A stretch of 32,658 nt of DNA from Spirochaetaceae bacterium (GTDB taxonomy: Bacteria > Spirochaetota > Spirochaetia > B11-G9): NCBI GenBank assembly GCA_030600745.1, contig JAUVLL010000003.1:1-32658 (forward strand), given 5' to 3'. The notes beneath the pieces are model-generated. The model saw nothing but the letters and a program-made list of their open reading frames with translations. It made no database searches and was not told the DNA's origin. Positions 3,068 through 32,658 of the stretch are shown piece after piece (the stretch's first letter is position 1; each line of letters starts with the position of its first letter). Made by a program: the position numbers and the translations under genes.

Positions 3068-4281
3068 TCCGTATCTCCCTTTTTAACCATAGTAATTGCG
3101 CTTGTTGGACAAATATCTACACAGGTAGAACAGCCCATACAGGTTTTTGATTTTATTGTAGTCACCTTAACAGGGTGGGTTATTGCAGTGCAGTGTCCAA
3201 TTTTCCAGCAAAGACCGCAGGATGTACATCTATCAAGATCAACTACTGCATATCCCTCATCAATCTTTAAATCTTTTGCAGCCTTTATATTCTGAAGAAG
3301 TAGATCTCTAAAATCACTTATTTTATTATAACTCATATCAGACATATACTGTTTTAACTCATCAATCAATTTCGGCAGCCATGCAAATCCCCGAAGCATT
3401 GTTTCTGTACATATCCAGAGGGCATCTGCTCCAAGCATAATATGTTCAACAGCGGATTGAAGATCATGAATACCGCCGGAATTTAAAAGTGTTGGATTGG
3501 GACCAAGAAGGCTTCTCATTTCATAGATGTCACGTAATGCTAAGGGACGTATCCATGGACCGGAAAGACAACCTAGTGTAATATTGCTTTGAAGACGGAA
3601 TATTGTTCCCATAGGATTTCTAATATCAATATCGGGAATACCAAGCCTGCTGGCAGTCCCTCCTACAGCATCAGCACCTGCCTCAATGCAGGCCCGGGCA
3701 GATTTTGCAATTTCACCGCCTTCGGGAGTTATTTTTACAAGAACTGGAATAGAAACGCTATCTTTTACTATTTCAACTATCTCTTTTAATGCTTCCGGTT
3801 CTTTCCCTAAACTGGCTCCTGTCAGCTGGACAGAGCTGTCACCGGTTGTTTCGGTGTTAAAAGACATATTTGGACAGCACATATTAAGTTCAATTATGTC
3901 TGAACCTGCATCTTCAAATTGCTTTGCAAGTCTTCCCCACCCTTCAGGATCGGGTCCATCATAGGTCAGATTAGGAATAAGCGCTATATCCTTAACTATC
4001 TTTCTGGCCTCTTCCAATAATTTGAGACCTTCCCCTGTAGTAAGGCGTTTTTCTGCAGAAAAAATATTATATCCCTTTTTTTTAAGCCATCTGTATCTGG
4101 GGGGAAGGCTTATGTAGGGTTCAGGATCTATAACCAGTTTCATGGAAACACCTGCCCATCCACTATCCTCTGCAGCACGAATTTGATCAAGATTTTTTAC
4201 AGTTGGACCGGAGCCTACAATAAAGGGATTTTTTAATGTCACATCACCAATTTTTACGGATAGATCTACAGTTTTACTCAT
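3064..4281 (-). CDS. Dihydropyrimidine dehydrogenase PreA-like / dihydroorotate dehydrogenase-family FMN enzyme with C-terminal 4Fe-4S domain
   Basis: LKNPFIVGSGP, IELNMCCPN, PVLVKITP, LSGPWIRP, SGGI; ferredoxin motifs CTSCGLC...HC and CMGCSTCVDICP. Confidence 0.85.
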   Translation of the reverse strand: MSKTVDLSVKIGDVTLKNPFIVGSGPTVKNLDQIRAAEDSGWAGVSMKLVIDPEPYISLPPRYRWLKKKGYNIFSAEKRLTTGEGLKLLEEARKIVKDIALIPNLTYDGPDPEGWGRLAKQFEDAGSDIIELNMCCPNMSFNTETTGDSSVQLTGASLGKEPEALKEIVEIVKDSVSIPVLVKITPEGGEIAKSARACIEAGADAVGGTASRLGIPDIDIRNPMGTIFRLQSNITLGCLSGPWIRPLALRDIYEMRSLLGPNPTLLNSGGIHDLQSAVEHIMLGADALWICTETMLRGFAWLPKLIDELKQYMSDMSYNKISDFRDLLLQNIKAAKDLKIDEGYAVVDLDRCTSCGLCWKIGHCTAITHPVKVTTIKSKTCMGCSTCVDICPTSAITMVKKGDTE

Positions 4282-8317: not shown

Positions 8318-9202
8318 CTAAGCCTTAACCGCATAGAGTTTTCCGGAAATACCCTGGGGTCGGACAAGCAGTAAAACAAAAATACTAAGATAAATTAAGA
8401 TTGGGGTCACCGAAGCTCCCACTTTGGCAACAATGATGCTTTCTGTAATACCAAGGAGGATCCCGGCAATAACACCACCACCAAGACTTCCCATTCCTCC
8501 GATAATTGCAGCAATAATACCCTTAAGCATCAGTTCACCTATAAAAGGGGTGACTGTATAGGTCATTCCAAGAAAAAATCCGGTAATACCGGCAAGAATT
8601 CCAGCTATAAAAAAGGTTAGAGATATTATAAAATCCGTATCCACTCCCATTAGTGCAGGGGCCCATGAATCGGAAGAAGCTGCCCTTATGGCAATTCCCA
8701 TTTTTGTTTTTTTAAGAAAAATAGTAAGTCCAAGAAGAACAATTGCTGTTATTGCAAGCATCATTAGATAAATCTTGGAAACAACAAGTTCACCAAAGGA
8801 TGTTACAGCACTTTTCATCATTTCCGGATATGGAAAGTAATATCTTCCCCATAATGCGGAGAAAGTTTTTTGTACAATCATCATTACTGTTATTGAAGTT
8901 ACAAAAAAATAGGTCAGTGGTCTCTTTTTTATACGAATAGGTCTAAAAACAAGTTTTTCAAGTAGAACAGCAATAAAACCACCTAGAACAGCAGTAATAA
9001 CTAATGCAGGAATCATTTGTGATACTATATGTGTAGATATAAAAAAACCAATATAGGCACATATAGTCAAAACCGCACCATGAGAAAAATTCGAGAATTT
9101 AAGTATATTAAATATTATCCCGAATCCCACTGCTTCAAGGGCATATACACCACCCAGAGAAACACCATTAAGAATCTGCTGCAGAATAAAATCCATATTC
9201 AT
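8318..9202 (-). CDS. livH: HAAT ABC transporter permease, LivH-like
   Basis: QQILNGVSLGGVYAL, NFSHG, GIAIRA, AAIIGGMGS, RPQGI. Confidence 0.92.
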   Translation of the reverse strand: MNMDFILQQILNGVSLGGVYALEAVGFGIIFNILKFSNFSHGAVLTICAYIGFFISTHIVSQMIPALVITAVLGGFIAVLLEKLVFRPIRIKKRPLTYFFVTSITVMMIVQKTFSALWGRYYFPYPEMMKSAVTSFGELVVSKIYLMMLAITAIVLLGLTIFLKKTKMGIAIRAASSDSWAPALMGVDTDFIISLTFFIAGILAGITGFFLGMTYTVTPFIGELMLKGIIAAIIGGMGSLGGGVIAGILLGITESIIVAKVGASVTPILIYLSIFVLLLVRPQGISGKLYAVKA

Positions 9203-9231
9203 TTTATTACCACCAACTATAAAAATTTAAA

Positions 9232-9243
9232 GAAACCGATTTC
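9232..9243. promoter_or_regulatory. LacI-type operator O1 (GAAACCGATTTC)
   Basis: Fits the GAAAnCGnTTTC LacI-family pattern; lies directly downstream of the -10 of the leftward promoter; an inverted twin sits at 9416-9427. Confidence 0.75.
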
Positions 9244-9272
9244 ATGATATGAGATACTTTTCCAATTGTCAA
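9244..9272 (-). promoter_or_regulatory. Sigma70-type promoter of the leftward livH...eda operon
   Basis: TTGACA (9272-9267), 17-nt spacer, TATCAT (9249-9244). Confidence 0.75.
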
Positions 9273-9344
9273 TATAAATTACACTGATATTTCCTTCTAA
9301 ATTTCTATGTTACTGTGATTTCCATATATTTTTCTATCTTTTAC

Positions 9345-9373
9345 TTGCTTTATTAGATAAAATGAGCTAATAT
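9345..9373 (+). promoter_or_regulatory. Possible sigma70-type promoter of the binding-protein operon
   Basis: TTGCTT, 17-nt spacer, TAATAT; weaker match in AT-rich DNA. Confidence 0.45.
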
Positions 9374-9415
9374 CTTCTTAATATTGGTGGAATTGGTTGT
9401 TGTTAGTATTTGTAC

Positions 9416-9427
9416 GAAATCGGTTTC
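9416..9427. promoter_or_regulatory. LacI-type operator O2 (GAAATCGGTTTC)
   Basis: 9416-9429 is the exact reverse complement of 9230-9243 (14 bp). Confidence 0.75.
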
Positions 9428-9468
9428 TTCAAAAAATACAATAATTTAGTGAAGAAAGGAGAACGAAA

Positions 9469-10656
9469 ATGTTAAAAAAGATCTTAACTGTTTTTCTCTG
9501 CCTCGCATTTATTACCACTGCAGGTTTTGTAATGGCTAATGGAGAGAAGGATTCAGAAGCAGGATCAATCAGGATCGGAATGTATGGTGATCTAACTGGT
9601 CCCACAGCACTTTGGGGGACAAATGCAGAAAGGGGAGCTAAACTTCGTATAAAAGAGGTTAATGAAAATGGAGGAGTCCTTGGAAGGCAGATAGAGTTAA
9701 TTAGCTACGATTGTCAGCTAAGCCCTACAGAAGCTATAAAAGCATATACCCGACTGGTTCAGGAAGATAAAGTTGTTGCTGTAAATGGTTCACTTATTTC
9801 GAACACAGCTCTGGCTGTTTCTCCGGTTGCTATTGAAATGGAAGTTCCTGTTGTTGCAAGAGCTATGGATGAAAGGGTTACAACCCCTGGATTTGATCCT
9901 GATAACCCGGATAAGAGTATACCTCCAAACCCATACTTTTTCCTTCTTCAGCCATCAGCATTTCAGCAGGCAGCTGCAATTGCAGGATATGCTATTGATG
10001 AACTGGGAATGGATACCTTTTCCATGCTGTACACTCCAGGGAATGCCTATGCTCAGTATCTTGCAAAGGGATTTGAGTATTATGTAAAGAAAAGAGGAAA
10101 GACAATGCTTAAAGCATTTGAGTTCCAGATGGGTGATTCAGATTTTAAAACTCAAATTACTGCCATTAAGCAATTAAACCCGGATGGATTATTTATACCG
10201 AATTATACTGCCCAGAATGCAAATATTGCTAAACAATCTGTTGAGCTTGGACTGAAGTCAGTAATGATTGGAAATAATTCATGGGATGCCCCAATGGACA
10301 AAGTTGCGGGTACTGCTGCAGACGGAGCCTATTTTCCACTTAATATCAGCCATGACAATCCTGATCTTCAATGGTATCGGGATAAATATAGTGAAGAATA
10401 TGGAGAAGAACCACTCTTAAACTCATTTGCAGGATGGGATGATGTAGGTTTTATTATTCAGGCAATTGAAAAAGCAGGATCTACTGATCCTGTAGCAATT
10501 GCAAGAGCAATGGCAGACACAGTTAACTATGAAGGTATTATTGGTACAATTAATATGAACAGAAAAACCCATAGACCAGTGGATCTGGCAATGTCAATTC
10601 TTTACTATGAAGGCGACAAAGTAAAAACTGCCGAACAAAAATATCTTCCAAAATAA
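9469..10656 (+). CDS. HAAT ABC transporter substrate-binding protein (LivJ/K-like)
   Basis: Signal peptide, IRIGMYGDLTGP, GGVLGRQIELISYD, DFKTQITAIK, AIEKAGSTDP; AAGGAG RBS. Confidence 0.92.
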   Translation: MLKKILTVFLCLAFITTAGFVMANGEKDSEAGSIRIGMYGDLTGPTALWGTNAERGAKLRIKEVNENGGVLGRQIELISYDCQLSPTEAIKAYTRLVQEDKVVAVNGSLISNTALAVSPVAIEMEVPVVARAMDERVTTPGFDPDNPDKSIPPNPYFFLLQPSAFQQAAAIAGYAIDELGMDTFSMLYTPGNAYAQYLAKGFEYYVKKRGKTMLKAFEFQMGDSDFKTQITAIKQLNPDGLFIPNYTAQNANIAKQSVELGLKSVMIGNNSWDAPMDKVAGTAADGAYFPLNISHDNPDLQWYRDKYSEEYGEEPLLNSFAGWDDVGFIIQAIEKAGSTDPVAIARAMADTVNYEGIIGTINMNRKTHRPVDLAMSILYYEGDKVKTAEQKYLPK

Positions 10657-10667
10657 TTCTTTGATTT

Positions 10668-10704
10668 CATAACTCCCTGGGATTTCAGGGAGTTATGCTT
10701 TTCT
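10668..10704 (+). terminator. Stem-loop after the binding-protein gene (intrinsic terminator or mRNA stabiliser)
   Basis: Perfect 12-bp stem CATAACTCCCTG / CAGGGAGTTATG, 6-nt loop, then CTTTTCT. Confidence 0.75.
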
Positions 10705-10747
10705 ATGTATAAAAACAATATTTATTTACACTAAAAGGAGTGGTATT

Positions 10748-11509
10748 ATGATTTCTTTTAAAAAAAAGAAACTGAAAGTTTTTGTTTTTGATAAAACTGA
10801 ATCTATGGCAGATCAGGCAGCAGAAGATGTTACTGCTAAAATAAAAGAGTTACAAAACAATAAAACAGAGATAAATATTATTTTTTCAGGAGCTGAGTCC
10901 CAGGAGCTTTTTTTAAGAAATCTTGCTGCTGCAAAAGAGATTATGTGGGAGAAAATAAATGCATTTGCTGTTGATGAATTTATTTCTCCCGGTATGAACC
11001 CTGATTTTAGAGTCTCCAGTCAGCCCGAAAAACTCCTTTACTCCAATGTAAATTTAAAAAGTGTAAATATAATAAATTATGCTGCAGAGGATATTGAGAA
11101 AGAACGGGAGAGATATGAAGAAATTATAAAAAAGAATCCACCGGACATTGTATGTCTTGGAATTGGTAAATCGGGTCATATTGCCTTTAATGAACCCGGG
11201 CAGAGCAGTTTTAATGACTCTCAGTATGTAAGTATAATGGAGCCTGATGAAAATTCGGAAGATCAATTGATGCGGGATCCAAATTTCAAGTCTCTTGGTA
11301 TAATTCCAAAAAAAGCAATTACAGTAACTATTCCTCCTTTAATGAAATGTCCAAATGTCTTTGTAGTTACACCTTATAAAATTAAGGCGCCGATAATTAA
11401 AAGATTAATGGAGAGTGATGTTGATGAAAGCCTGCCTGCATCTATTCTTCAGACCAAAGAGGGTGCTAAACTATATCTTGACAGAGAGTCCTACAGTCTC
11501 TGTAAATAA
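10748..11509 (+). CDS. Glucosamine-6-phosphate deaminase/isomerase family protein (NagB-like)
   Basis: AFAVDEF, CLGIGKSGHIAFNEPG, LPASIL; phosphate loop reads SGAESQ rather than the canonical TGxTP. Confidence 0.82.
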   Translation: MISFKKKKLKVFVFDKTESMADQAAEDVTAKIKELQNNKTEINIIFSGAESQELFLRNLAAAKEIMWEKINAFAVDEFISPGMNPDFRVSSQPEKLLYSNVNLKSVNIINYAAEDIEKERERYEEIIKKNPPDIVCLGIGKSGHIAFNEPGQSSFNDSQYVSIMEPDENSEDQLMRDPNFKSLGIIPKKAITVTIPPLMKCPNVFVVTPYKIKAPIIKRLMESDVDESLPASILQTKEGAKLYLDRESYSLCK

Positions 11510-11542
11510 ATTACAGAAAACGAAACCATAGGAGTATAACTA

Positions 11543-12508
11543 ATGGGAAAATACAAAGTAGTCGTAACAGACGACAGATATGAAAGCTATAAAGAGGAGA
11601 ATGAAGTTTTAAAAGAACTTGAAATTGAGGTTGAAATTCACAATCTGACAGGACCGGATGACGCAAAAGAGGTTTTAAAAGATGCCGATGCAGTTTTAAA
11701 CAATCTGTTTCCCCTTACAAAAGAAATTATAAGTAAGATGGATAAGTGCAAAGTAATAAACCGTTATGGGGTTGGATATGACAATGTAGCTGTGGAGGCA
11801 GCAACAGAAAAAGGGATATGGGTGTCAAGAGTACCTGACTACTCACTGGAAGATGTATCTGATCATGCACTTGCACTGTTATTGGGCAGTGTAAGAAAAA
11901 TAGCCTATAAAGACAGAATGATCAGGACAGGAAAATGGAATCTTCATAAGGACTGGCCTTCCTTCAGAATTGCAGGGAAAACTCTTGGGCTTATAGGGTT
12001 TGGAGCTATTTCCAGAACATTGTTCAGAAAAATCTCCGGATTAGGCCTTGAAAAAGTTCTGATTTATGATCCGTTTGTAGATATTGATGAGATAAAAAAA
12101 GCAGGCGGTGTTCCTTCAACACTGGTTGAACTGCTTGAAGGTTCAGACTATATCTCCATTCATGCTCCATTGACAGGTAATACCAAAGGGATGATTGGGG
12201 AGAATGAATTTGCAAAAATGAAAGATAACTGTCTATTAATAAATACTTCCAGAGGACCTCTTATAGATGAAAATTCTCTTTATAATGCTTTAAAAGAGGA
12301 ACAAATAGCCGGGGCGGCAATTGATGTTTATACAGTAGAACCTCTGCCCAGGGAGAGCCCTTTACGATCTTTGGACAATATTATATTAACCGATCATGCA
12401 GGCTGGTATTCTGAAGAATCTATTATCGAATTAAAAACAAAGGCAGCCAGAAATATCCTTGAGGTGCTGAAGGGGGGGAAACCCATTTATTCGGTAAATA
12501 AGATATAG
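11543..12508 (+). CDS. D-isomer-specific 2-hydroxyacid dehydrogenase (CtBP/SerA-like), copy 1
   Basis: RYGVGYDNV, GLIGFGAI, INTSRG, DVYTVEP, DHAGWYS. Confidence 0.92.
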   Translation: MGKYKVVVTDDRYESYKEENEVLKELEIEVEIHNLTGPDDAKEVLKDADAVLNNLFPLTKEIISKMDKCKVINRYGVGYDNVAVEAATEKGIWVSRVPDYSLEDVSDHALALLLGSVRKIAYKDRMIRTGKWNLHKDWPSFRIAGKTLGLIGFGAISRTLFRKISGLGLEKVLIYDPFVDIDEIKKAGGVPSTLVELLEGSDYISIHAPLTGNTKGMIGENEFAKMKDNCLLINTSRGPLIDENSLYNALKEEQIAGAAIDVYTVEPLPRESPLRSLDNIILTDHAGWYSEESIIELKTKAARNILEVLKGGKPIYSVNKI

Positions 12509-13554: not shown

Positions 13555-15558
13555 TTAGTTGAAAATATCTTTATTTCTGTTTTGTTCCCAGACAAATTCA
13601 AACCAAAATTCTTTGTCTGGAATAGGACGTCGCTTAATATATTTATGGTTTATTTCACCATTTTCAGTAAAACAGCTTACAAGAATTCTGTTAAAATCCT
13701 TATTTTTCGTCTCTCTGTATATAATGTTCAGCCCCTCGGGATTTATTATTTCATTCCCTTCTACATCCATAATCATATACGATCCTCTACTTCTTCCTCC
13801 ACTACTAATATAATATTCTATTGCAGAGAGATATACCCAATGTGCAAGTACCAGATGCCTGTTTTTTAGAGCAAAGGGGAGAAGGTTTATATTGTTAATT
13901 GTACATTCATTAAAGCTTTTAAACTGCTTTTTTGCATCAATAACTCCCTGGTGGGTAATATCATCTTTTCTAATATATCCGCCAGCCAGTGACATTCTGA
14001 TCTGAAATTTATCTCTATAGTTTCTAAGGGAAGAACATTGAGCATCTTCATCATCAGAATGTTTTAGAATTTTAGATATTATTTCTGTAAGATCATTAAT
14101 GCTGCTCTTAATACCCTTTATGGTATCCTCAATAATAAGAGTAGATTCTCTGTATGTTTCAGAAATTTTTTGTGCGGCTCGAAGGGAACCTACCTGCCCG
14201 GAATTTAGAGCAGAACCTCCAGGGCGGTAAACACCATGGCTTCCGTTTACTTCACCAATAGGAAAGAAGTGTTTAAGGTTAGTGGATTCCCACCAGATGT
14301 CTCCTGAGAGGCCTCCATTATTATGCTGGGAGCAGACAGCTATCTCCAGGGGTTCTTTAGAAAGATCTATACTATGGCTTTTGTACATATTTACCGCATC
14401 AGGATTCATTTTTGTTAATCTGTCTATTGGTAAACCAAATAATGCATTTGATTTTGTAAGATACTTTTCTGCTTCAGGGGAGAGTTTATCGAGTTTAAAT
14501 TTACCAATTACTAAATTCCCTTCAGGATTCCTTCGGAAATCAAGAAATACCCTTCGCCTTTTTTCATGAATTTCCTTATAAACAAGAATATCAATAAGGG
14601 ATGATCCATAGTTTTCCACTTTTCGGGGATCAAAGGGCCATTGATAACCCTTAAGAAAGACAGCATTTGTCAGCAATTCAATATCTGGAAACCAATTACA
14701 AAGAAATTCTTCTTCATGCCTGCCATCCTGGTCAGTACTTATATAGCGGGGAATAACCTGTTGAAAGGCTCCGGAGACATTCCATCGGTGCTTTATGGAA
14801 GCAAGCCCAAACTGTGATTCAGAGAGATTAACAGCTTCGGCACCTATTTCCAGGGCAAGACCAATTGCACCGGTATGTCCATGAGGGTAGACTGATTCCT
14901 TGTAGAGTCCTCCTGGGCCGCCGACACCAAATACAGTATTTTCAGCAAGATAACAGATAAGCCCCAGGTTATCATTTTCTATTTTTCGTTTATCAAGGCA
15001 AAGGGCCCCAACAACTCTGCTGCCAATTTTTAAGATTTTTACAACATCGGTATTATCAGAGATCTCTATCTTTTTTCGCATGACCTCACTAAGAAGTAAT
15101 TCTACCATCTCTCTGGAAGTGTAGGGACCGGCAGATGTTCCCCTTTGCATTGTATCATGATCAGTTTTATACCCAACAAAGGATCCGTATTCGTTGTGGG
15201 GGAACTTTACTCCAATATTAACCAGATGATAAAACGCCTGAAGAGAGCAAGTGGCCTCTGTAAGAGCAATATCTCCATGCATAGAACCTCCGTCAAACAG
15301 AGATTTCGCCATAAGGAAGGAAGAGTCGGGAATTTTGATCATATCTGAAAGTTTGTAATAGGTCTGTTTATCTGATCCCGTATTTCTGGAAGTCCCCGAT
15401 TTTAACCCCTCTGTAACTATAAGGAGATCATCAACTCCAAATTGATGTAATCGATCTGCACAATTTAAAGAAGCTGCACCGCTGCCTATTACCAATGTAT
15501 GAATGTAGAAAATCGGTATATCAAATTGTGAGCTTAGAATAGAATCAAGTTGCTTCAT
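13555..15558 (-). CDS. FAD-binding oxidoreductase of the SdhA/FrdA/NadB superfamily, function unknown
   Basis: VIGSGAASL dinucleotide motif, GVGGPGGLY, QHNNGG, IGEVNGSHGVYRPGGSALNSGQVG, SRGS near the C-terminus. Confidence 0.8.
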   Translation of the reverse strand: MKQLDSILSSQFDIPIFYIHTLVIGSGAASLNCADRLHQFGVDDLLIVTEGLKSGTSRNTGSDKQTYYKLSDMIKIPDSSFLMAKSLFDGGSMHGDIALTEATCSLQAFYHLVNIGVKFPHNEYGSFVGYKTDHDTMQRGTSAGPYTSREMVELLLSEVMRKKIEISDNTDVVKILKIGSRVVGALCLDKRKIENDNLGLICYLAENTVFGVGGPGGLYKESVYPHGHTGAIGLALEIGAEAVNLSESQFGLASIKHRWNVSGAFQQVIPRYISTDQDGRHEEEFLCNWFPDIELLTNAVFLKGYQWPFDPRKVENYGSSLIDILVYKEIHEKRRRVFLDFRRNPEGNLVIGKFKLDKLSPEAEKYLTKSNALFGLPIDRLTKMNPDAVNMYKSHSIDLSKEPLEIAVCSQHNNGGLSGDIWWESTNLKHFFPIGEVNGSHGVYRPGGSALNSGQVGSLRAAQKISETYRESTLIIEDTIKGIKSSINDLTEIISKILKHSDDEDAQCSSLRNYRDKFQIRMSLAGGYIRKDDITHQGVIDAKKQFKSFNECTINNINLLPFALKNRHLVLAHWVYLSAIEYYISSGGRSRGSYMIMDVEGNEIINPEGLNIIYRETKNKDFNRILVSCFTENGEINHKYIKRRPIPDKEFWFEFVWEQNRNKDIFN

Positions 15559-25868: not shown

Positions 25869-26585
25869 CTATACTATCCTCACTTCAATATTTTCATTCA
25901 GATAATCCCGCCACTTTTTCCAGTCAGGATATACTCTGGAAAGTAGAGCATAAAACCTTGAGCTATGATTATGCTCTTTTGTATGGCACAGTTCATGGAA
26001 GATAACATAATCAATGCATACTTTAGGTGCAGAAACAAGTTTTGGATTCAAAAAAATCTTTCCCTCCCTTGTACAACTTCCCCAGCGCTTCGCCATTATC
26101 TTTACCTGCCAGACAGGTTCCTTTTTAATGCCTATTACTGCAGAAACTTTTATACATTCCATAAATCGCTCTTTAAATATCTGCAGGCTCCTCTCTCGAA
26201 ACCAATTTAGAAGAAGCTTCTCCCTTTGTTCAATGGAATGAGATTCTGGTGCAGAAAGATGAAATCTTCCATTTTTCAGCTTAACATAAGGCTTTCCTGC
26301 AAGAACCTTAAGCCTGTACTGCTTACCCAGATATCGGAATGTCTCACCTGTTTGATATTTCGGCTTTGGCTGAGACGGCTGTAATCGTGAAAACTCCAGT
26401 CGTTTCTTATATATCCATGGAGCACGCTTCTTGACTTTCTGCAGAACTTCATTAAGATCCACATACTCCGGAGCTACAACTTCTATATGCTGATCCGGAT
26501 AAACATGGATTGCAAGTGTTTTTCTATTTCTTCTATCAAGACTGAATTCAATATCTGTTGTACCGTATTGTATTTTATAATTCAC
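25869..26585 (-). CDS. YgjP/DUF45-type M48-like metal-dependent hydrolase, typical downstream partner of hsdR
   Basis: RKTLAIHV, GETFRYLGKQY, RWGSC, IDYVIFHELCH, HNHS..FY. GTG start at 26585 overlaps the hsdR stop. Confidence 0.9.
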   Translation of the reverse strand: MNYKIQYGTTDIEFSLDRRNRKTLAIHVYPDQHIEVVAPEYVDLNEVLQKVKKRAPWIYKKRLEFSRLQPSQPKPKYQTGETFRYLGKQYRLKVLAGKPYVKLKNGRFHLSAPESHSIEQREKLLLNWFRERSLQIFKERFMECIKVSAVIGIKKEPVWQVKIMAKRWGSCTREGKIFLNPKLVSAPKVCIDYVIFHELCHTKEHNHSSRFYALLSRVYPDWKKWRDYLNENIEVRIV

Positions 26586-29500
26586 GGCTCTTTGCAATCT
26601 CCAGTGTTTGCTCAATGATTCTATCAATTACCTCATAACTCCACTTAAGATCAAAATTGCCTTTAATTTGAAGTAAATAATCTTCAATATCATTGAACAT
26701 TTGATTATGAACACCCGGATCATGAACCCAGTCTCTTTTTTCCAGGTTTTTAATTATTGTATCTATTTTTACTGCTGCATCAGCTCCAAGGTAAGCAGGA
26801 GCAGTCTCTTTAACCATACCATCAGGAAGTTCTTCCAATACTACGCGATAATATGGACGTGCCGATTCATGTTGCTTTAACTTATCCGGTATATCAGAAG
26901 AACCTTTTGTTCTCATTTCATCCATAGCCTCTCTAATACGGTTAAGATAATTTGCGTCTGATAGTCTTTTAGCTCTATGTTCAGCAATTGCTGCATTTAT
27001 TATTTCTGATAATTTTTTATAGAGTAATGGATCTTCCTGCATTTTATCATGAATAGTTTTTCTCATTCTTGCTGCTATTGTATCTGCTTTAGCTGCATCT
27101 CCTTCAACCCCTCCAATTTCCCGCTCAAAATCTTCTATATTAAACAAATCAACAGGTTCAACAATTTGTTTTACAATCTTTGCTCCAATGTATTTATTCA
27201 CCATGTTCCTGATTTGTACTTCATAGGATGAATAATCTACAGTCTCACCATATCGCTGTTTTACCGTATTTCTTAGTGAAAGAAACATTTTTAGATCATC
27301 TTTATATCGTTGGATAGACGCAAGTGAAGTGTCCTCGTGAAACCTGGCGTTTCCAAGAGCCAATCTCAATGTATTAGCAAATACCCGAAGTGAATCATAA
27401 AATTTCTGTCGTGTATCTTCAGGTTCCAGATGAAGCTGCATCGCCTCAGTGTCTGATTTATTTTTGACAGAATTAAATACTTCCCGGACATTAGTATGAT
27501 ATTGAGCCAGTTTTCCTATTTCTTCGAGAACATTTGTAATTATTCCATCAACATCTTCCCTGTCAAAACCTTCCTCTTCAAGAGCTTTGTAGAGTTCAAT
27601 GGCATCATTAAGCTGACCGAAAACACCTCGATAATCGATAATAAGCCCATATTCTTTACCGTCATACAGTCGATTCACCCTGGCGATAGCCTGCAGAATA
27701 TTGTGTTCTTTTAAGCGCTTATCTATGTAGAGTACTGCATTTCTAGGAGCATCAAATCCGGTGAGAAGCTTATCGATTACTATAATAATTCCCGGTTCAT
27801 CGGATTTTTTAAATCGTTCAATAAGCGTATCCTGATATACTTTCGCTGAGCCGAACTGATCCATCATGGATTTCCAGAATCTTTGGACTTCCGGAATATC
27901 GGCTTCATCAACCTCAGAATGATCTTCCCTTGTGTCAGGAGGGGACATGATGACTGCTGTTGAAAGCCCTCCAAAATCATCAAAATACTTTTTATATTTT
28001 ATAGCTTCCTGCCTGGATGATACTGCAAACTGACCCTTTAGCCCTGAGTTTTTATAATCAGTTGTAAAGTGCTGGATGATATCATATGCAATTTCCTGAA
28101 GACGTTCTTCTGATTTTGTTAACTCTTCTTCCCGGCGGAATTTCTTCTTCAAATCTATTTTTTGATCTTCTGTTAAATCTTTTGCAATACGTTCAAACCA
28201 CTTATCAATCTGCTTCTTATCTCCTCTAAGCTCACTCATTCTCCCTTCATATATAAGGCGTGTAACTGCACCATCGGTAACGGCCTGATTCATTGAATAA
28301 GAATGGATGAATCCACCAAATTTAGCTGCTGTACTTTTTTCTTTCTTTAATAATGGAGTTCCTGTAAAGCCAATATAACAGGCGTTTGGGAATACTCTCT
28401 TCATACTGGCATTGGCAACACCGTATTGTGACCGGTGGCTTTCATCTACCAGGACAAAGATATTCCTGCTTTCCGATTTAAGTTTGTTTTTACGCAAACC
28501 AGCTTCAAACTTATCTATAATTGTAGTTATGATATTAGCTTTATTCTGTTCAATAAGACGAAAAAGATTTTCGCCGCTGGTTGCTTTTTTAACTTCTTTA
28601 CCACAGTTTTTGAAAGTCTTATAAATCTGATCATCAAGGTCCACTCTGTCAGTTACAAGAATGACCTTTGGATCAATAATTGATGGATTAAGGCTGATTG
28701 CTTTTGCCAGTAATACCATGGTAATCGACTTGCCCGAACCTGTTGTATGCCAGATAACACCTCCTGGACGTAGAGAATCCCCTGCTACATTGGTAATCCT
28801 GATAATTGTATCCTTAATGGCAAAATACTGCTGATATCTTGGAACTTTCTTTATCTTATTATCATAAACAACATAACTATGTGTAATTTCAAGGAGCCTC
28901 TTGGGCTTAAGAAGGCTGAATATTGTCTTATCCTGTACTGATGGTATTCTTTTCCCTGCACTCATGATTTCAAGCATTTTATTCTTCTGCCAGTCATCCC
29001 GTTCATTGAATAGATATTGAATATTTTCGCCATCAAGCTTCTTATTAATTGAATGATTCAGCCTCTTTTTGTCCTCATTACTATAGTCCTCTTTCCAGAC
29101 AGACCAGAATTTTAGAGGAGTTCCGGCTGTCCCATACATCGCCTGATTTTGGCTTAGAGAAAAAAGAAGCTGAGAATAAACAAACAGATGAGGTATTTCA
29201 TCTGCAGATTGGTTTCGAATATGCTGGCTTATGCCTTCTTTAATGGAATTCTTTTTATCCGGTCTTTTGCATTCTATTACGGCCAGAGGTATTCCATTTA
29301 CAAAGACTATAATATCAGGACGACGAGTCTGGTTGCTATGACGTCTTTCAATAATAAATTCATCGCAAACGTGAAAAACATTTTCCTGGGGATTCTCCCA
29401 ATCGATGTACTTCAGGGAAAAACTTCTGGTGTACCCTGCAATAGTCTGCTCAAAGCTTTTGCCAAGAGTTATAAGATCATACACTTGTTCATTTGTGGTT

Positions 29501-29769
29501 ATAAGGCTGTCAAATGGAATATCCCTAAGCTCCTGAACAGCCTTTTCAATATTGGCATCGGAGAATGTATGTGTCTTACCTTTAAATGTGAAAGAGTTAA
29601 TTTTATGCAGCTGTTTCTTAAGTATTGTATCCAGAACCGGTTGACTGAATTTATCGCTGCGAAGCTTCCTGGCAACCGATGGCGGGATATATTCATAACC
29701 CAGATTTATGAGCTGATGGAGAGCTGGAATTAGTGAGATAAAGTCTTCCTGGTATTCTGATACAGACAT
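26575..29769 (-). CDS. hsdR: Type I restriction endonuclease subunit R
   Basis: RRPDIIVFVNGIPLAVIECK nuclease motif, WHTTGSGKS Walker A, VDESHRSQ, GFTGTP, LLTGFDAP, LQAIARVNR. Confidence 0.97.
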   Translation of the reverse strand: MSVSEYQEDFISLIPALHQLINLGYEYIPPSVARKLRSDKFSQPVLDTILKKQLHKINSFTFKGKTHTFSDANIEKAVQELRDIPFDSLITTNEQVYDLITLGKSFEQTIAGYTRSFSLKYIDWENPQENVFHVCDEFIIERRHSNQTRRPDIIVFVNGIPLAVIECKRPDKKNSIKEGISQHIRNQSADEIPHLFVYSQLLFSLSQNQAMYGTAGTPLKFWSVWKEDYSNEDKKRLNHSINKKLDGENIQYLFNERDDWQKNKMLEIMSAGKRIPSVQDKTIFSLLKPKRLLEITHSYVVYDNKIKKVPRYQQYFAIKDTIIRITNVAGDSLRPGGVIWHTTGSGKSITMVLLAKAISLNPSIIDPKVILVTDRVDLDDQIYKTFKNCGKEVKKATSGENLFRLIEQNKANIITTIIDKFEAGLRKNKLKSESRNIFVLVDESHRSQYGVANASMKRVFPNACYIGFTGTPLLKKEKSTAAKFGGFIHSYSMNQAVTDGAVTRLIYEGRMSELRGDKKQIDKWFERIAKDLTEDQKIDLKKKFRREEELTKSEERLQEIAYDIIQHFTTDYKNSGLKGQFAVSSRQEAIKYKKYFDDFGGLSTAVIMSPPDTREDHSEVDEADIPEVQRFWKSMMDQFGSAKVYQDTLIERFKKSDEPGIIIVIDKLLTGFDAPRNAVLYIDKRLKEHNILQAIARVNRLYDGKEYGLIIDYRGVFGQLNDAIELYKALEEEGFDREDVDGIITNVLEEIGKLAQYHTNVREVFNSVKNKSDTEAMQLHLEPEDTRQKFYDSLRVFANTLRLALGNARFHEDTSLASIQRYKDDLKMFLSLRNTVKQRYGETVDYSSYEVQIRNMVNKYIGAKIVKQIVEPVDLFNIEDFEREIGGVEGDAAKADTIAARMRKTIHDKMQEDPLLYKKLSEIINAAIAEHRAKRLSDANYLNRIREAMDEMRTKGSSDIPDKLKQHESARPYYRVVLEELPDGMVKETAPAYLGADAAVKIDTIIKNLEKRDWVHDPGVHNQMFNDIEDYLLQIKGNFDLKWSYEVIDRIIEQTLEIAKSREL

Positions 29770-29810
29770 TGATGCTCCCTTTATTAAATAGTTTGATTCT
29801 CTGTAAATTT

Positions 29811-29819
29811 AGTATAACA
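29811..29819 (-). promoter_or_regulatory. Possible extended -10 promoter of hsdR
   Basis: TGtTATACT about 40 nt upstream of the hsdR ATG; AAGGGAG RBS. Confidence 0.45.
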
Positions 29820-29844
29820 AAGAGGTATATTATTATCATTCATT

Positions 29845-30333
29845 TTATTCCGGAAGTAAATCATAAAAATCTTCCAGGATTTTTGAACTTATTTCTCTGT
29901 TTGTTTCTGATATCTTGTTTGCGATTGTTTTTGCTCTTCTTTTAGATATTAAACCGGTTTCAACCAATTCAGCTATTAACTTCAATCCTCTAACCACTTC
30001 AATCCCGTTATTCAAGCATTCTTTACGTAGTTTACTGTCATTTGTTGCACAAATCCAGTTATTTTTATGCGCTAGAATGAAACAAACTGTATCCTGCAGA
30101 GAACAACCCTGTAAGGTTTCTCCAGCTTTCGCCAACACTTCAATAGGGACAGGAATAACTGTTATTCCAAACTCAGACGCTTCCATCTCACTTAGTTGAT
30201 TGACCTCAGCTAAAATAATATCTGGTACAATAAATTTCGAATAAATACTTACTTTTTCCAGTACTTGTTTATCAGCATTACAATAATCTATCAAAATATT
30301 TGCATCACATATTATAATTTTCTCTTTCCTCAA
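29845..30333 (-). CDS. PIN-domain protein (putative RNase toxin)
   Basis: IICDANILID, LAEV, SLQD, ATNDSKLR acidic PIN residues; 4-bp overlap with the upstream gene. Confidence 0.82.
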   Translation of the reverse strand: MRKEKIIICDANILIDYCNADKQVLEKVSIYSKFIVPDIILAEVNQLSEMEASEFGITVIPVPIEVLAKAGETLQGCSLQDTVCFILAHKNNWICATNDSKLRKECLNNGIEVVRGLKLIAELVETGLISKRRAKTIANKISETNREISSKILEDFYDLLPE

Positions 30334-31454
30334 AGGCAGACCTTCCAGCTGTTATTAAGCTCACGTATTTCGTCTAATGACAGCTTTAAAATTTCAGCAG
30401 CTCTATTCAGAGAGATCTCTTCTTTTTCATAAGCTTCTCTTACCATCTTATACAGTCTGTCTTCCACGAAATCATATGAAGATAAAGGATCCGGTTCTTT
30501 TTCTTTGTCTTCTGCTAATGACAAAGGCTCATAATGGTTCTTCAGTGATATCTTATACTTTTTCTTAACAGCCTGAGTAAATTGTGGATATACTTGTCTC
30601 TGGTCTAAATCAAAGTGAGAAATAAATCTATAGAGTACAGTTTTATAACTTACACGGTATTTTCTTTTAATATGAAGAACAGCATCCACCCAATGTAATC
30701 CTTTGGATTCATCCCATTCACGCAGGAAACCTTCTTCTGGCATAAGAAAATAGCCGGCAAAGATGTTGGCTTCTTTTTCTTCGCTATCCATTTCATCTTT
30801 TTCTTTTTGATCATAGGAATCAGAATGTATTAGCAGGTGTCCCAACTCATGAACAACAGTAAATATTCGCCTTTCAATGCTAATTACTTCCGATATATTT
30901 ACTGCAATAGCAGGACCGCCATCCTGCTGTCCTATAGAGAAGCCAAAGAAATTTTTTAAACCAAAGGCAGATAAATGGAATTTAATACCCCACTTTTCCA
31001 GAAGACCAATAACATCAGTTACCGGTTCCATGGTCCCAAGACCGATCATTTTTCTTAATTTATTAGCAACCTTTACAGGATCTTTTTCAGCAATTTCAGG
31101 AAAATCCAGAGGTGCCATTTTTAATAATTCCTGTAAATAATTATAATCCTTCAGCCATTGATCCACATTATATATTATCTGTTCTCTGAGGTTATCCTCT
31201 TGTTTAGTAAGTCTCCGGTTAGTTCGAAAGCGAAGAGACTTAAATTCCGGTGGATCAGCAATAATATCCTTGATATCGACATCCAGAACTTTCGCAAACC
31301 GGATTAAATTTGCAGATTTCGGTTGCGATTTGCTGTTTTCTATGTTGCTGTAGGCAACACGGGATAAACCGCATTTATCAGCCATATCCTGCATATTAAG
31401 ATTATTGGCTTTTCGCAGGCGGTGCAGGTTGGCAGCTATATGTTCAATAGCCAT
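30330..31454 (-). CDS. XRE HTH fused to ImmA/IrrE (DUF955, COG2856) zinc metallopeptidase
   Basis: N-terminal HTH (LRKANNLNMQDMADKCGLSRVAYSNIEN), RRIFTVVHELGH (HExxH), EKEANIFAGYFLMP, YRVS, ISLNRAAEIL. Confidence 0.93.
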   Translation of the reverse strand: MAIEHIAANLHRLRKANNLNMQDMADKCGLSRVAYSNIENSKSQPKSANLIRFAKVLDVDIKDIIADPPEFKSLRFRTNRRLTKQEDNLREQIIYNVDQWLKDYNYLQELLKMAPLDFPEIAEKDPVKVANKLRKMIGLGTMEPVTDVIGLLEKWGIKFHLSAFGLKNFFGFSIGQQDGGPAIAVNISEVISIERRIFTVVHELGHLLIHSDSYDQKEKDEMDSEEKEANIFAGYFLMPEEGFLREWDESKGLHWVDAVLHIKRKYRVSYKTVLYRFISHFDLDQRQVYPQFTQAVKKKYKISLKNHYEPLSLAEDKEKEPDPLSSYDFVEDRLYKMVREAYEKEEISLNRAAEILKLSLDEIRELNNSWKVCL

Positions 31455-31482
31455 GTTTGTTCCCTTTTCTAGTATTATTTTT

Positions 31483-31538
31483 ACTTTACATATTTATACT
31501 ACTATCTATATTGTAAAGTGCTCTTAACGTTAAGTCAA
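31483..31538 (-). promoter_or_regulatory. Promoter of the ImmA/IrrE-PIN operon with overlapping inverted repeats
   Basis: TTGACT (31538-31533), 17 nt, TACAAT (31515-31510); palindrome CTTAACGTTAAG 31523-31534; ACTTTACA (31483-31490) / TGTAAAGT (31512-31519). Confidence 0.75.
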
Positions 31539-31543
31539 GAAAA

Positions 31544-32005
31544 TTATTTATAGATTTCACTCTCAATTTTTCTAATCTGGTGGAGAGTCAGCTTGTGTTT
31601 GTTCTTTTCGAATTGTACGAAAAAGTTTTCCGGTTTATCCATTGATTGGATTAGATTACTTACTGCCTTTGAAGTTAAAGTTCCTTGTTCATAACATTTA
31701 AATGCTAATTCCTCTAATTCAAGTATTTTAGCAAAGGTCTTTTGGTTCGTGCCATATTTTTGTCTGATGGAGATAATCTCCTCAGGAAAGATTATATTCT
31801 CAAGTTTACGATATTCGTTATAACCGTTTGTCAAAGTAAAGCCCATTTGATCCATAGTTGCAAAGTCTTTTCCACAAACAGTACAAAGAGAGAACTCTGC
31901 TTCGGATTCAATTTCTATTCCCCGAATGATATTTTTTTCCATTTTTTTTATAATTTCAATTTCTCGAAATTCTTCGCAATATGGACACATACCGTTCATG
32001 ATCAT
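31544..32005 (-). CDS. MqsA-like zinc-ribbon + HTH antitoxin-type protein, orphan, possibly truncated
   Basis: CPYC...CTVCG, then IIFPEEIISIRQKYGTNQKTFAKIL...YEQG; AGGAG RBS. Confidence 0.78.
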   Translation of the reverse strand: MIMNGMCPYCEEFREIEIIKKMEKNIIRGIEIESEAEFSLCTVCGKDFATMDQMGFTLTNGYNEYRKLENIIFPEEIISIRQKYGTNQKTFAKILELEELAFKCYEQGTLTSKAVSNLIQSMDKPENFFVQFEKNKHKLTLHQIRKIESEIYK

Positions 32006-32046
32006 CTCCTTATAATAACTTTGCTATTGTTATGGATTGAAGTAAG

Positions 32047-32364
32047 TTAAATCTCTTCGGGCTTGTTGCGTATCGAAACTGATAACTCACAATTCAACAC
32101 AGATGAGAATTGAGCCAGAGTTTCTATGGAAAAATTAACTTTTTCGTTCAGTACTCTGGATATATATTTACGGGACTTCCCCATCCTCTTTGCCAGTTCT
32201 ACCTGAGAAATATTCTCTTTTTCTAAAACCCACAAAATATCTTCTACTATCCTCCCTCTGGTATAACTTTCAATAAACTCAGGATCTTTCTCAAGCTCCA
32301 GATCCGGAAGGTGCTTAATCTCTTCAAGTGTTTCTGTTGTAGTTCTTTTAACTTTTTCTTTCAT
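32047..32364 (-). CDS. XRE-family HTH protein (HigA-like antitoxin type), orphan
   Basis: DPEF, ISQVELAKRMGKSRKYISRVLN, NFSIETL. Confidence 0.82.
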   Translation of the reverse strand: MKEKVKRTTTETLEEIKHLPDLELEKDPEFIESYTRGRIVEDILWVLEKENISQVELAKRMGKSRKYISRVLNEKVNFSIETLAQFSSVLNCELSVSIRNKPEEI

Positions 32365-32527
32365 GTGATTGCCTCAGATGGGGAAAAAAAATGGTGCCCC
32401 CAGTTTTGATCAGCGACAATTACTTTTCCCGGCCAGGTATTTTTAATTGTCGCTGATCACAGTTTATCGGTAGGTGAATAGTTGGGAAACGTGATATAAA
32501 ATTTTCTCTATATTCTGATACAGACAC
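32361..32527 (-). pseudogene. Degenerate copy of the first ~35 codons of hsdR
   Basis: 16-bp identity TATTCTGATACAGACA with 29753-29768. After removing the insertion at 32407-32465 it translates VSVSEYRENFISRFPTIHLPINWGHHFFSPSEA versus HsdR MSVSEYQEDFISLIPALHQLINLGYEYIPPSVA (17/33 identical, no gaps). Confidence 0.85.
32401..32465. mobile_element. 53-bp MITE-like insertion with 16-bp perfect terminal inverted repeats and a 6-bp target-site duplication
   Basis: CAGTTT (32401-32406), TGATCAGCGACAATTA (32407-32422), 21-nt core, TAATTGTCGCTGATCA (32444-32459), CAGTTT (32460-32465). Confidence 0.82.
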
Positions 32528-32538
32528 CTAGTTATTCC

Positions 32539-32658
32539 TTATTTATATTCTATGAATGATATTTTTACTTTGAAATCCATCCTATTTAGATTTGAAACAA
32601 ATCCCTTTAGGTTAATTTTTGAAAATAATGGAATTGTAAAATTTCCATATCTATCCTT
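32539..32658 (-). CDS. 3' end of an upstream gene entering from beyond the window; tail reminiscent of TIGR04141/DUF6119-type proteins (tentative)
   Basis: Open frame KDRYGNFTIPLFSKINLKGFVSNLNRMDFKVKISFIEYK-stop; only 39 residues visible, family resemblance is from memory. Confidence 0.45.
   Translation of the reverse strand, partial: KDRYGNFTIPLFSKINLKGFVSNLNRMDFKVKISFIEYK

Follow-up and report, generated by a model that had tools for sequence, protein, structure and literature searches.

Short dead hsdR starts as candidate junction marks beside genes embedded in type I restriction-modification operons

Many anti-phage genes are known to be embedded in type I restriction-modification (R-M) operons, PrrC in EcoprrI being the classic example. 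Homology-facilitated illegitimate recombination, reportedly described by de Vries and Wackernagel in 2002, combines one homologous anchor with one illegitimate junction, introduces foreign DNA beside a conserved gene with no dedicated recombinase, and has been shown in natural transformation in a few species. At R-M loci, insertion with long target duplication was reportedly described by Nobusato and colleagues in 2000. Furuta et al. (2010; PMC2853133) characterize such events as mobility-gene-free inserts bounded by target repeats of tens to hundreds of bp, found around R-M genes by comparing genomes, and give their mechanism as unknown. The catalog of Payne et al. (2024; bioRxiv 10.1101/2024.01.29.577857) covers defense genes that reside within type I R-M, BREX, DISARM and Hma systems and ascribes the embedding to a "genomic sink"; its main text uses neither "hsdR" nor "recombination". 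The DNA analyzed here is the entire 32,658-nucleotide contig JAUVLL010000003.1 (C291; the window) of a Spirochaetaceae genome bin (G000; 375 contigs, 87% complete). On its minus strand a short dead copy of the hsdR 5' end, the scar, stands upstream of an intact hsdR, and four accessory genes lie between the two copies.

Two features link the window to the inserts defined in PMC2853133: the flanking direct repeats exceed 30 bp (here 64 nt, 70% identical), and the insert is shorter than 20 kb (~2.7 kb here) and free of mobile-element genes. It differs from them in that R and M homologs are absent from the insert, in that the target is the hsdR 5' end inside an operon and the insert consists of accessory genes rather than a whole R-M system at any locus, and in that, in relatives, the remnant is followed by part of another hsd operon. 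Homology-facilitated illegitimate recombination predicts a single junction with a gene remnant at the join, which the anatomy of the locus would fit. Toxin-antitoxin (TA)-like genes lie between hsd genes on the same strand, as do the embedded defense genes of Payne et al.; unlike the catalog presented in the main text of that work, the scars bear on the route of embedding. Unlike site-specific integrative elements, the locus shows no recombinase (Pfam domains of the cargo; 0 PF00589 matches on C291) and no shared crossover core. No published account of hsdR remnants or duplicates in this context was found; the supplements of PMC2853133 and of Payne et al. may list cases.

The dead hsdR start and its counterparts in relatives

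The dead hsdR start (32399-32545, minus strand) was delimited by alignment, a direct-repeat search and a profile hidden Markov model (HMM). An AAGGA resembling a ribosome-binding site precedes a GTG at 32527, which lies 11 nt past the TAA of an upstream DUF6119 open reading frame (ORF) and opens a 35-residue ORF (MSVSEYRENFISRFPTIHLPIN...), of which ~69-71 nt are hsdR coding sequence. A first-pass annotation of the same DNA had picked out this GTG, its AAGGA and its spacing as a decayed hsdR start, and all three are seen, as is the exact 16-bp repeat (TGTCTGTATCAGAATA) common to both start copies. The second copy is the first ~71 nt of the intact hsdR (29699-29769), which has the ribosome-binding site AAAGGGAG upstream of its ATG. 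The pair 29705-29768 / 32463-32526 is 64 nt long, 70% identical and ungapped, with the copies 2758 nt apart, and constitutes the longest direct repeat within 29500-32658. Local alignment of the two starts is significant against shuffled sequence, with a score of 41.5 compared with 19.1 ± 3.1 (maximum 33) in 1000 mononucleotide shuffles. When a small insertion is excised, the score is 42 against 17.8 ± 2.6 (maximum 31).

The alignment had been described as gapless once this insertion was removed, which holds for 64 nt; a 1-nt deletion lies near the end, and similarity stops at approximately +69 to +71 (ATAAA-CTGGG). The following 70 nt score 13, below the shuffle mean of 15.7 and reached in 958 of 1000 shuffles, and a scar extending past CTGGG is ruled out. 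The earlier count of 17 identical residues in 33 overstates the length because the stretch past ~+71 is not significant; the remnant is ~70 nt rather than ~100 nt, and 14 of its first 22 residues are identical to HsdR. The HMM of the HsdR amino terminus matches the fragment at positions 4-22 with 11.0 bits. The fragment is a genuine hsdR start, natively placed behind the upstream gene. An assembly artifact is ruled out for the window because Logan contigs of other sequencing runs reproduce the arrangement, run X2 spanning the DUF6119-scar-HTH adjacency (31796-32619) and run X1 the PIN-to-hsdR adjacency. Samples carrying the locus come from cold seeps and marine sediments.

Among 41 genomes searched, G000 included, 8 carry this HsdR at E ≤ 1e-50. 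The HsdR of G005, from the same genus, is 79% identical to that of the window, and the metagenome contig L101 has 91% DNA identity to G005. Both have the order hsdM-DUF6880-hsdS-DUF3800-163aa-[remnant]-MqsA-like-hsdR, in which the remnant consists of AGGAGCTATAAAGTG plus ~21 nt and is identical to the intact start at 30 of 36 positions. The remnant runs directly into a dead HsdS carboxyl terminus (KKGLM*RLLTGEVRVK...) with 15 of 19 residues identical to a real HsdS end (E = 1e-8 in a small search). This fusion has the appearance of a join between two hsd operons. Two other groups of relatives have no remnant: DUF6880 is followed after 9 nt by hsdR in G011 (HsdR 75% identical), and hsdS is followed after 20 nt by hsdR in L022 and L102 (66-73%). 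The hsdR of G005 (locus L017, G005:C99, 8608-11799) has an in-frame TGA that divides it into ORFs at 8608-10947 and 11080-11799, and it may be inactivated or carry a sequencing error.

On balance, the scar is read as the junction mark of combined illegitimate and homologous recombination between type I operons, without a dedicated integrase or attachment site. Under this reading the scar would be the start of an hsdR that once came immediately after the DUF6119 gene. Type I operons of two versions, differing in their embedded genes, would then have been joined, one junction being non-homologous and lying ~70 nt inside the hsdR of one parent, and conserved hsd genes serving as the sites of homologous exchange for the remainder. 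Fusion of neighboring operons by deletion would be an equivalent route. Each case would need just one junction, between an upstream gene with its hsdR start and other genes with a complete hsdR, and one sharp end of similarity is seen per case. The remnants are interpreted as splice marks because the readable right-hand side is DNA of another hsd operon in G005/L101, where the hsdR start joins an hsdS tail, and in a further locus described below (L043), where it is another copy of the same ATPase-hsdR pair. The DUF1016-hsdR pair to the right of the L077 junction is likewise common elsewhere as a native pair. Either the cargo with a new start or a DUF6119 module with a trailing start may have been the newcomer; the sequence favors neither.

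Duplication of a resident target offers a different explanation for the same repeats. Foreign DNA would have entered a resident hsdR start, for example through staggered breaks and fill-in, both copies would derive from the resident, and the upstream copy would since have decayed. Direct repeats of more than 30 bp do flank a short insert without mobility genes in the window, L043 and L077, and PMC2853133 documents such a pattern at the R-M loci of many bacteria; the class is defined there for inserts with R and M genes, which are absent here. No empty allele that aligns to both copies was found among the loci compared. The first-pass annotation had anticipated relatives in which the upstream gene directly precedes hsdR. 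G011 and L022/L102 have that arrangement, with upstream genes other than DUF6119, which precedes hsdR in 0 of 162 other loci and occurs in 3 of 401 genomes of the phylum, 0 of these 3 having this hsdR within 1.5 kb. The DNA after the G005/L101 remnant is the hsdS tail of another operon, and the "insert" of L043 repeats a gene that is already there upstream. Target duplication is thus an unlikely origin of the remnants.

Recurrence of hsdR-start remnants at other loci

Remnants were sought at 80 loci from species genomes and 80 from metagenomes, whose HsdR proteins have 43-77% identity to this one over the first 300 residues, and at 3 loci from relatives; a start codon was defined for each. The probe was the -20 to +90 segment of each hsdR, compared with its own upstream DNA up to 10 kb at a score threshold of ≥36. 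Loci L027 and L054 (no start), L060 and L087 (<400 nt upstream) and one metagenome locus (<300 nt upstream) were left out. Same-strand remnants are present in 8 of 159 loci and reverse-strand ones in 0 of 159 (maxima 35 and 33). Five fall among the 80 genome loci (L043, score 149; L077, 112; G005, 42; L062, 39; window, 38) and three among 79 metagenome loci (L118, 40; L154, 39; L161, 36). The highest reverse-strand matches, 35 and 33 in G005 and L101, are 19-20-nt stretches inside the DUF3800 gene and were taken as chance.

An HMM of the first 60 HsdR residues was also run on six-frame fragments of the upstream regions. The top matches are all on the same strand, start at profile positions 1-4 and end by position 22. 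They score 24.0 bits for L043, 13.6 for L077, 11.1 for L062 and 11.0 for the window among 27,895 fragments, and 12.3 for L118 and 11.1 for L154 among 17,704; the best reverse-strand match has 9.9 bits and covers positions 36-58. The first DNA match of L062 is partly a tandem low-complexity repeat, and its true remnant was found by the HMM, which also adds four metagenome loci (L163, L166, L167 and L168; 7.7-7.8 bits). Collapsing close kin (L062 with L154; L163 with L166-L168) leaves ~7 lineages, labeled as Spirochaetes (the genus of the window), Thermodesulfobacteriota, Kiritimatiellia and unlabeled bacteria. Two expectations of the first-pass annotation were borne out: different cargo lies between repeated hsdR starts elsewhere, and a search of HsdR amino termini against their own upstream regions recovers same-strand remnants at the top.

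The genes between the copies differ and include an MqsA-like gene, a gene for a 401-residue ATPase, a DUF1016-like gene, a gene for an 83-residue helix-turn-helix (HTH) protein and short-repeat arrays; in L118 the copies are 113 bp apart with nothing between them. The repeats of L043 span 110 bp with 95% identity, and those of L077 span 66 bp with 94%. Every remnant is 5'-terminal and lies directly after, or overlaps, the stop of the upstream gene. The upstream gene of L077 ends at a TAA within hsdR codons 2-3, and at the intact copy the DUF1016-like gene stops at exactly this place. The remnants end at +16 (L161), ~+21-27 (G005/L101), +47 (L118), ~+50 (L062 group), +65 (L077), +67 (L043) and +69-71 (window), and probes extended to +150 to +250 never lengthened them. 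All seven ends at or below 71 have a probability of 1.5e-4 under a uniform distribution over 1-250. Full-length HsdR tblastn searches gave 165 high-scoring segment pairs, of which 0 lay outside the main gene, and no larger hsdR piece is present in any flank. Two constraints would produce this size limit in a join between operons: the upstream gene must stay whole, and RecA-type recombination would resolve any longer stretch shared between the two hsdR copies without leaving a scar.

The size limit also bears on the proposal that the remnants have no connection with the arrival of cargo and reflect local tandem duplication of cargo plus hsdR start, or tandem hsd operons, with later loss of the upstream copy. 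Several loci have features of this kind. Before the L043 remnant lies an earlier, decayed version of the same ATPase gene, internally deleted and retaining three matching segments of 81-91% identity. The L118 copies have nothing between them, L041 has a tandem RhuM-like gene with three copies of an 84-bp intergenic element, and L034 has a second DUF2442-hsdR-start remnant downstream of the operon. Deletions should leave remnants of all sizes, and none above 71 nt is seen. The remnants of the window, L077 and the L062 group moreover abut a different upstream gene at native spacing, with no cargo copy before them. Tandem duplication is improbable as the source of the remnants.

The repeat structures at several of these loci were recorded in their own right. 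In L041 (4372-6375) the RhuM-like gene is tandemly duplicated just before hsdR, the upstream copy being split, and the three intergenic elements measure 84-90 bp and contain a GC-rich hairpin. In L034 a second, internally deleted DUF2442-like start is fused to hsdR-upstream-like sequence (14256-14306 versus 9658-9709); it lies downstream of hsdR-YgjP in a 1.5-kb insert that is missing from the relatives L047 and L094. In L062, L154, L163 and L166-L168, arrays of a short repeat, CCGTGTATTC(A/C)GTG..., fill nearly all intergenic spaces of the hsd operons, among them the one that separates the remnant from the intact hsdR, and read as TEHTEYTE-like frames.

The positions of the ends raise the further idea of a discrete, integrase-less cassette that docks site-specifically within the first ~22 hsdR codons, bringing its own hsdR 5' end, ribosome-binding site and promoter and leaving attL-like debris. 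Modules with an hsdR start would be inserted at the preferred position by the host or by R-M-dependent break-and-repair. Three independent ends (+65, +67 and +69-71) fall just before the conserved LGY codons, the left limit of the remnants varies while the right limit is similar, and cargo travels together with an hsdR start at several loci, the DUF1016-hsdR pair downstream of the L077 scar being native in at least five other loci. A further hint comes from allele characters. Over the first 36 nt the window remnant has a GTG start and an Arg codon, as the G005/L101 alleles do, and the intact window start has ATG and Gln, as in G011 and L022, which would fit two alleles; over 66 nt the identities are 45, 47 and 48, and the hint comes down to 2-3 characters.

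The remaining lineages end elsewhere, at +16, ~+24, +47 and +50, and the grouping of three ends inside a 7-nt span does not reach significance (p = 0.29-0.40 for ranges of 1-80 or 1-100 and 0.06 for 1-250), and a common site at codon 22 was rejected. No shared motif was seen by eye at or after the junctions. The G005/L101 remnant is followed by an hsdS tail, and the cargo of the window is composite, as described below. An excised circle was sought in contigs of 4 runs, which cannot show rare circles; the sole joint that goes back on itself (X3, 32364>30266 with 29 letters between) is distrusted, since loose ends at 32347 and 30286 suggest ~20-nt matches and the joint probably rests on very short matched sides. 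A dedicated cassette is very unlikely on this evidence, and it is just as hard to credit that the first ~22 hsdR codons, up to the conserved LGY, form a recurrent integrase-free docking point for defense modules. The first-pass annotation had proposed that cargo turnover at the hsdR start leaves a scar without an integrase. That part is supported; the cassette-exchange route it invoked is not, with ends ranging from +16 to +71.

The same annotation treated hsdR itself as the landing site, and a control shows that it is not unique. Upstream copies of their own starts were counted for other ORFs of ≥150 residues after seven repeat-rich loci were dropped. Such copies occur for 20 of 1725 ORFs (9 of 668 at ≥300 residues) compared with 6 of 152 hsdR starts, an odds ratio of 3.0-3.5 (p = 0.015-0.04) in a comparison that includes non-independent kin loci and, as controls, many ORFs that do not represent genes. 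The control duplicates are short as well (-46 to +73, -8 to +42, -60 to +19 and -1 to +51). Start duplication is general to these islands, and hsdR is favored ~3-fold rather than unique because other ORF starts show duplicates at about one-third of the rate.

Several observations weigh against the joining of two operon versions as the origin of the remnants. No parental alleles were found among 162 other loci or 401 genomes of the phylum. Three ends fall within 7 nt of one another, as a site-specific process predicts, with the clustering falling short of significance. In part, L043, L041 and L118 resemble tandem duplications; L043 and L077 are each known from one contig of a metagenome-assembled genome, and kin loci are not independent. 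Selection against longer HsdR fragments could also account for the shortness of the remnants.

The operon, its embedded genes and the palindromic element

The minus strand carries all genes from 32658 to 25869, in the order DUF6119/TIGR04141 carboxyl end, hsdR fragment, HTH_3, MqsA-family, HTH plus Peptidase_M78, PIN_9, hsdR and YgjP-like. The accessory genes are thus nested between hsd genes on the same strand, and the four genes that the first-pass annotation placed between the copies are confirmed by Pfam. The upstream gene (32539-32658, minus strand) is a 3' end cut by the contig end, the remainder of the gene being missing from the assembly. It matches Pfam PF19614 below the cut-off (E = 1e-5, profile positions 492-524 of 524) and TIGR04141 at 22.1 bits, also below the cut-off, and is the only DUF6119 match in G000. 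The intact hsdR (26575-29769, minus strand) encodes 1064 residues with Pfam HSDR_N, SWI2_SNF2, T1R_D3-like and T1RH-like_C domains and matches TIGR00348 with 499 bits; its product is 79% identical to HsdR of G005 and 75% to that of G011. A mosaic hsdR is ruled out by sliding identity among the window, G005 and G011, which shows no switch. A YgjP-like metallopeptidase gene follows (25869-26627, minus strand; Pfam YgjP-like, 7.3e-57) and is kept in G005 and G011 with 75% and 66% identity. As listed from a TTG at 26627, this ORF overlaps the hsdR end by 53 nt (26575-26627); its true start probably lies ~14 codons further on because relatives align only from residue 15.

The beginning of the operon is on a separate contig, C113, which holds half an hsdS and, with 91% identity to G005, residues 1-207 of hsdM, where the contig breaks off; the assembly does not contain the central part of the operon. 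G000 contains a second, unrelated R-M-like cluster (C62:1-3959) with a partial helicase/R gene, an N6 methylase of 520 residues that is 25% identical to G005 HsdM, and a 417-residue gene. The GC content of the cargo is 32.5-37.1%, close to the 37.4% of hsdR and the 38.0% of the genome, and composition does not set the cargo apart. A known RNA in 29600-32658 is likewise ruled out, the Rfam scan giving one match at chance level (E = 0.94).

The first gene after the scar (32047-32364, minus strand) encodes a 105-residue Xre/controller-like HTH_3 protein (Pfam HTH_3, 7.8e-12) that matches PADLOC PDC-M64C (2e-9) and Control_protein (1.3e-6). It is followed by a 153-residue MqsA-family zinc-ribbon/HTH protein (31544-32005, minus strand), which passes TIGR03830 with 75.3 bits against a cut-off of 61.8 and has 30.2 bits to Pfam MqsA_antitoxin. 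The neighbor directly upstream of the MqsA-like gene is the HTH_3 gene rather than an MqsR-type toxin, and in G005/L101 the remnant and the MqsA-like gene have no gene between them. The protein has no MqsR-like partner. MqsA-family genes directly before hsdR, with no MqsR-like toxin, occur at L017 8105-8587 and L101 3819-4322, and in L101 the MqsA-like stop abuts the hsdR start. As speculation, the MqsA-family protein may regulate hsdR instead of serving as an antitoxin, and the same may apply to the 105-residue HTH protein.

The third gene (30330-31454, minus strand) encodes a 374-residue HTH plus Peptidase_M78 (ImmA/IrrE) protein (Peptidase_M78, 7.4e-18; HTH_3, 5.1e-13). It is preceded by a promoter-like site, TTGACT-17-TACAAT (31510-31538, minus strand; 10 of 12 matches), that carries the palindrome TTAACGTTAA in its spacer. 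The protein matches 15 PADLOC RmrA models (best E = 6.7e-35) and, at 98.5 bits and below the cut-off, the NCBIfam spr1629 repressor/antitoxin. The fourth gene (29845-30333, minus strand) overlaps the M78 gene by 4 nt and encodes a 162-residue PIN_9 protein (27.4 bits, cut-off 26.3), a probable toxin partner with 0 PADLOC families at E ≤ 0.001 and no NCBIfam match. The RmrA and RmrT models of PADLOC denote the RosmerTA (Rosmer) defense system. An RmrA-like HTH plus M78 protein encoded with a small, overlapping putative toxin gene resembles that system; unlike it, the pair here has a PIN_9 protein in place of a recognized RmrT, with the toxin encoded downstream of the RmrA-like protein. The domain content of the two proteins looks like that of a TA-type defense pair.

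These four genes had been taken as a single cargo cassette. The cargo is instead composite because the MqsA-like gene is shared with G005 and L101 (86% and 84% DNA identity), which are without the HTH, M78 and PIN genes. The hsdR 5' region is only 75% identical between the window and G005/L101. A contig of run X5 has 30042-31544 (40 differences) joined directly to the HTH gene at approximately codon 42, the MqsA-like gene being absent, and its loose ends at 29772 and 29849 suggest other neighbors. The M78 and PIN genes form a separate module with its own promoter-like site, and the MqsA-like gene is an old resident beside hsdR in this genus, the others having come separately. No second scar from M78-PIN insertion was found after the MqsA stop among the direct repeats of 29500-32658. 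The first-pass annotation saw no integrase, in agreement with 0 of the 14 PF00589 matches of the genome lying on C291 and with the absence of recombinase and transposase domains from the Pfam matches of the cargo (no search was made for serine recombinases). In the joining of two operon versions, the cargo would have been built in steps from the MqsA-family gene, the HTH gene and the RmrA-like M78-HTH plus PIN module, and a palindromic element would have arrived last, at the end of the scar.

This element is the small insertion that the first-pass annotation had removed to align the two starts, and it proves to be unrelated to hsdR. It is a 53-bp palindrome (32407-32459) with 16-bp perfect arms (TGATCAGCGACAATTA), flanked on both sides by the 6-bp direct repeat AAACTG (32401-32406 and 32460-32465), and it forms a hairpin of -16.6 kcal/mol (z = -5.3). 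Full copies are present at C100:492-545 (96%) and C107:5235-5287 (95%), where the flanks show no clear target duplication, and part-copies lie at C36:2478 and 3865-3890. Runs X2 and X3, public runs from different studies, have the scar with an empty site, in which the joint 32400>32460 skips 59 nt and 6 nt fit either side. Inverted repeats, target duplication, several copies and empty sites elsewhere make the element like a miniature inverted-repeat transposable element. It has no Rfam match, and no linked parent transposase was found. The palindromes are not the ends of an insertion sequence; the C36 interval between arm copies holds ordinary genes and no transposase. The palindrome is therefore a small mobile element, and it inserted at the end of a scar that already existed, since other runs carry the scar without the element.

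Implications for type I operons

The window itself is modest, with an old scar, a small mobile palindrome and composite TA-like genes. If the docking reading were true, type I operons would behave like integron-style collectors of defense genes. The joining of operon versions predicts instead a ceiling on scar size set by the minimum homology for recombination, and phylogenetic discordance across each junction. Short dead hsdR starts, found in ~7 lineages from several phyla and always ≤71 nt long, would then be the physical junction marks of embedding events. In annotation, such scars help to mark where embedded modules begin and end, and they point away from dedicated mobile elements and toward embedding by recombination that joins operons with different cargo and is anchored in conserved hsd genes.

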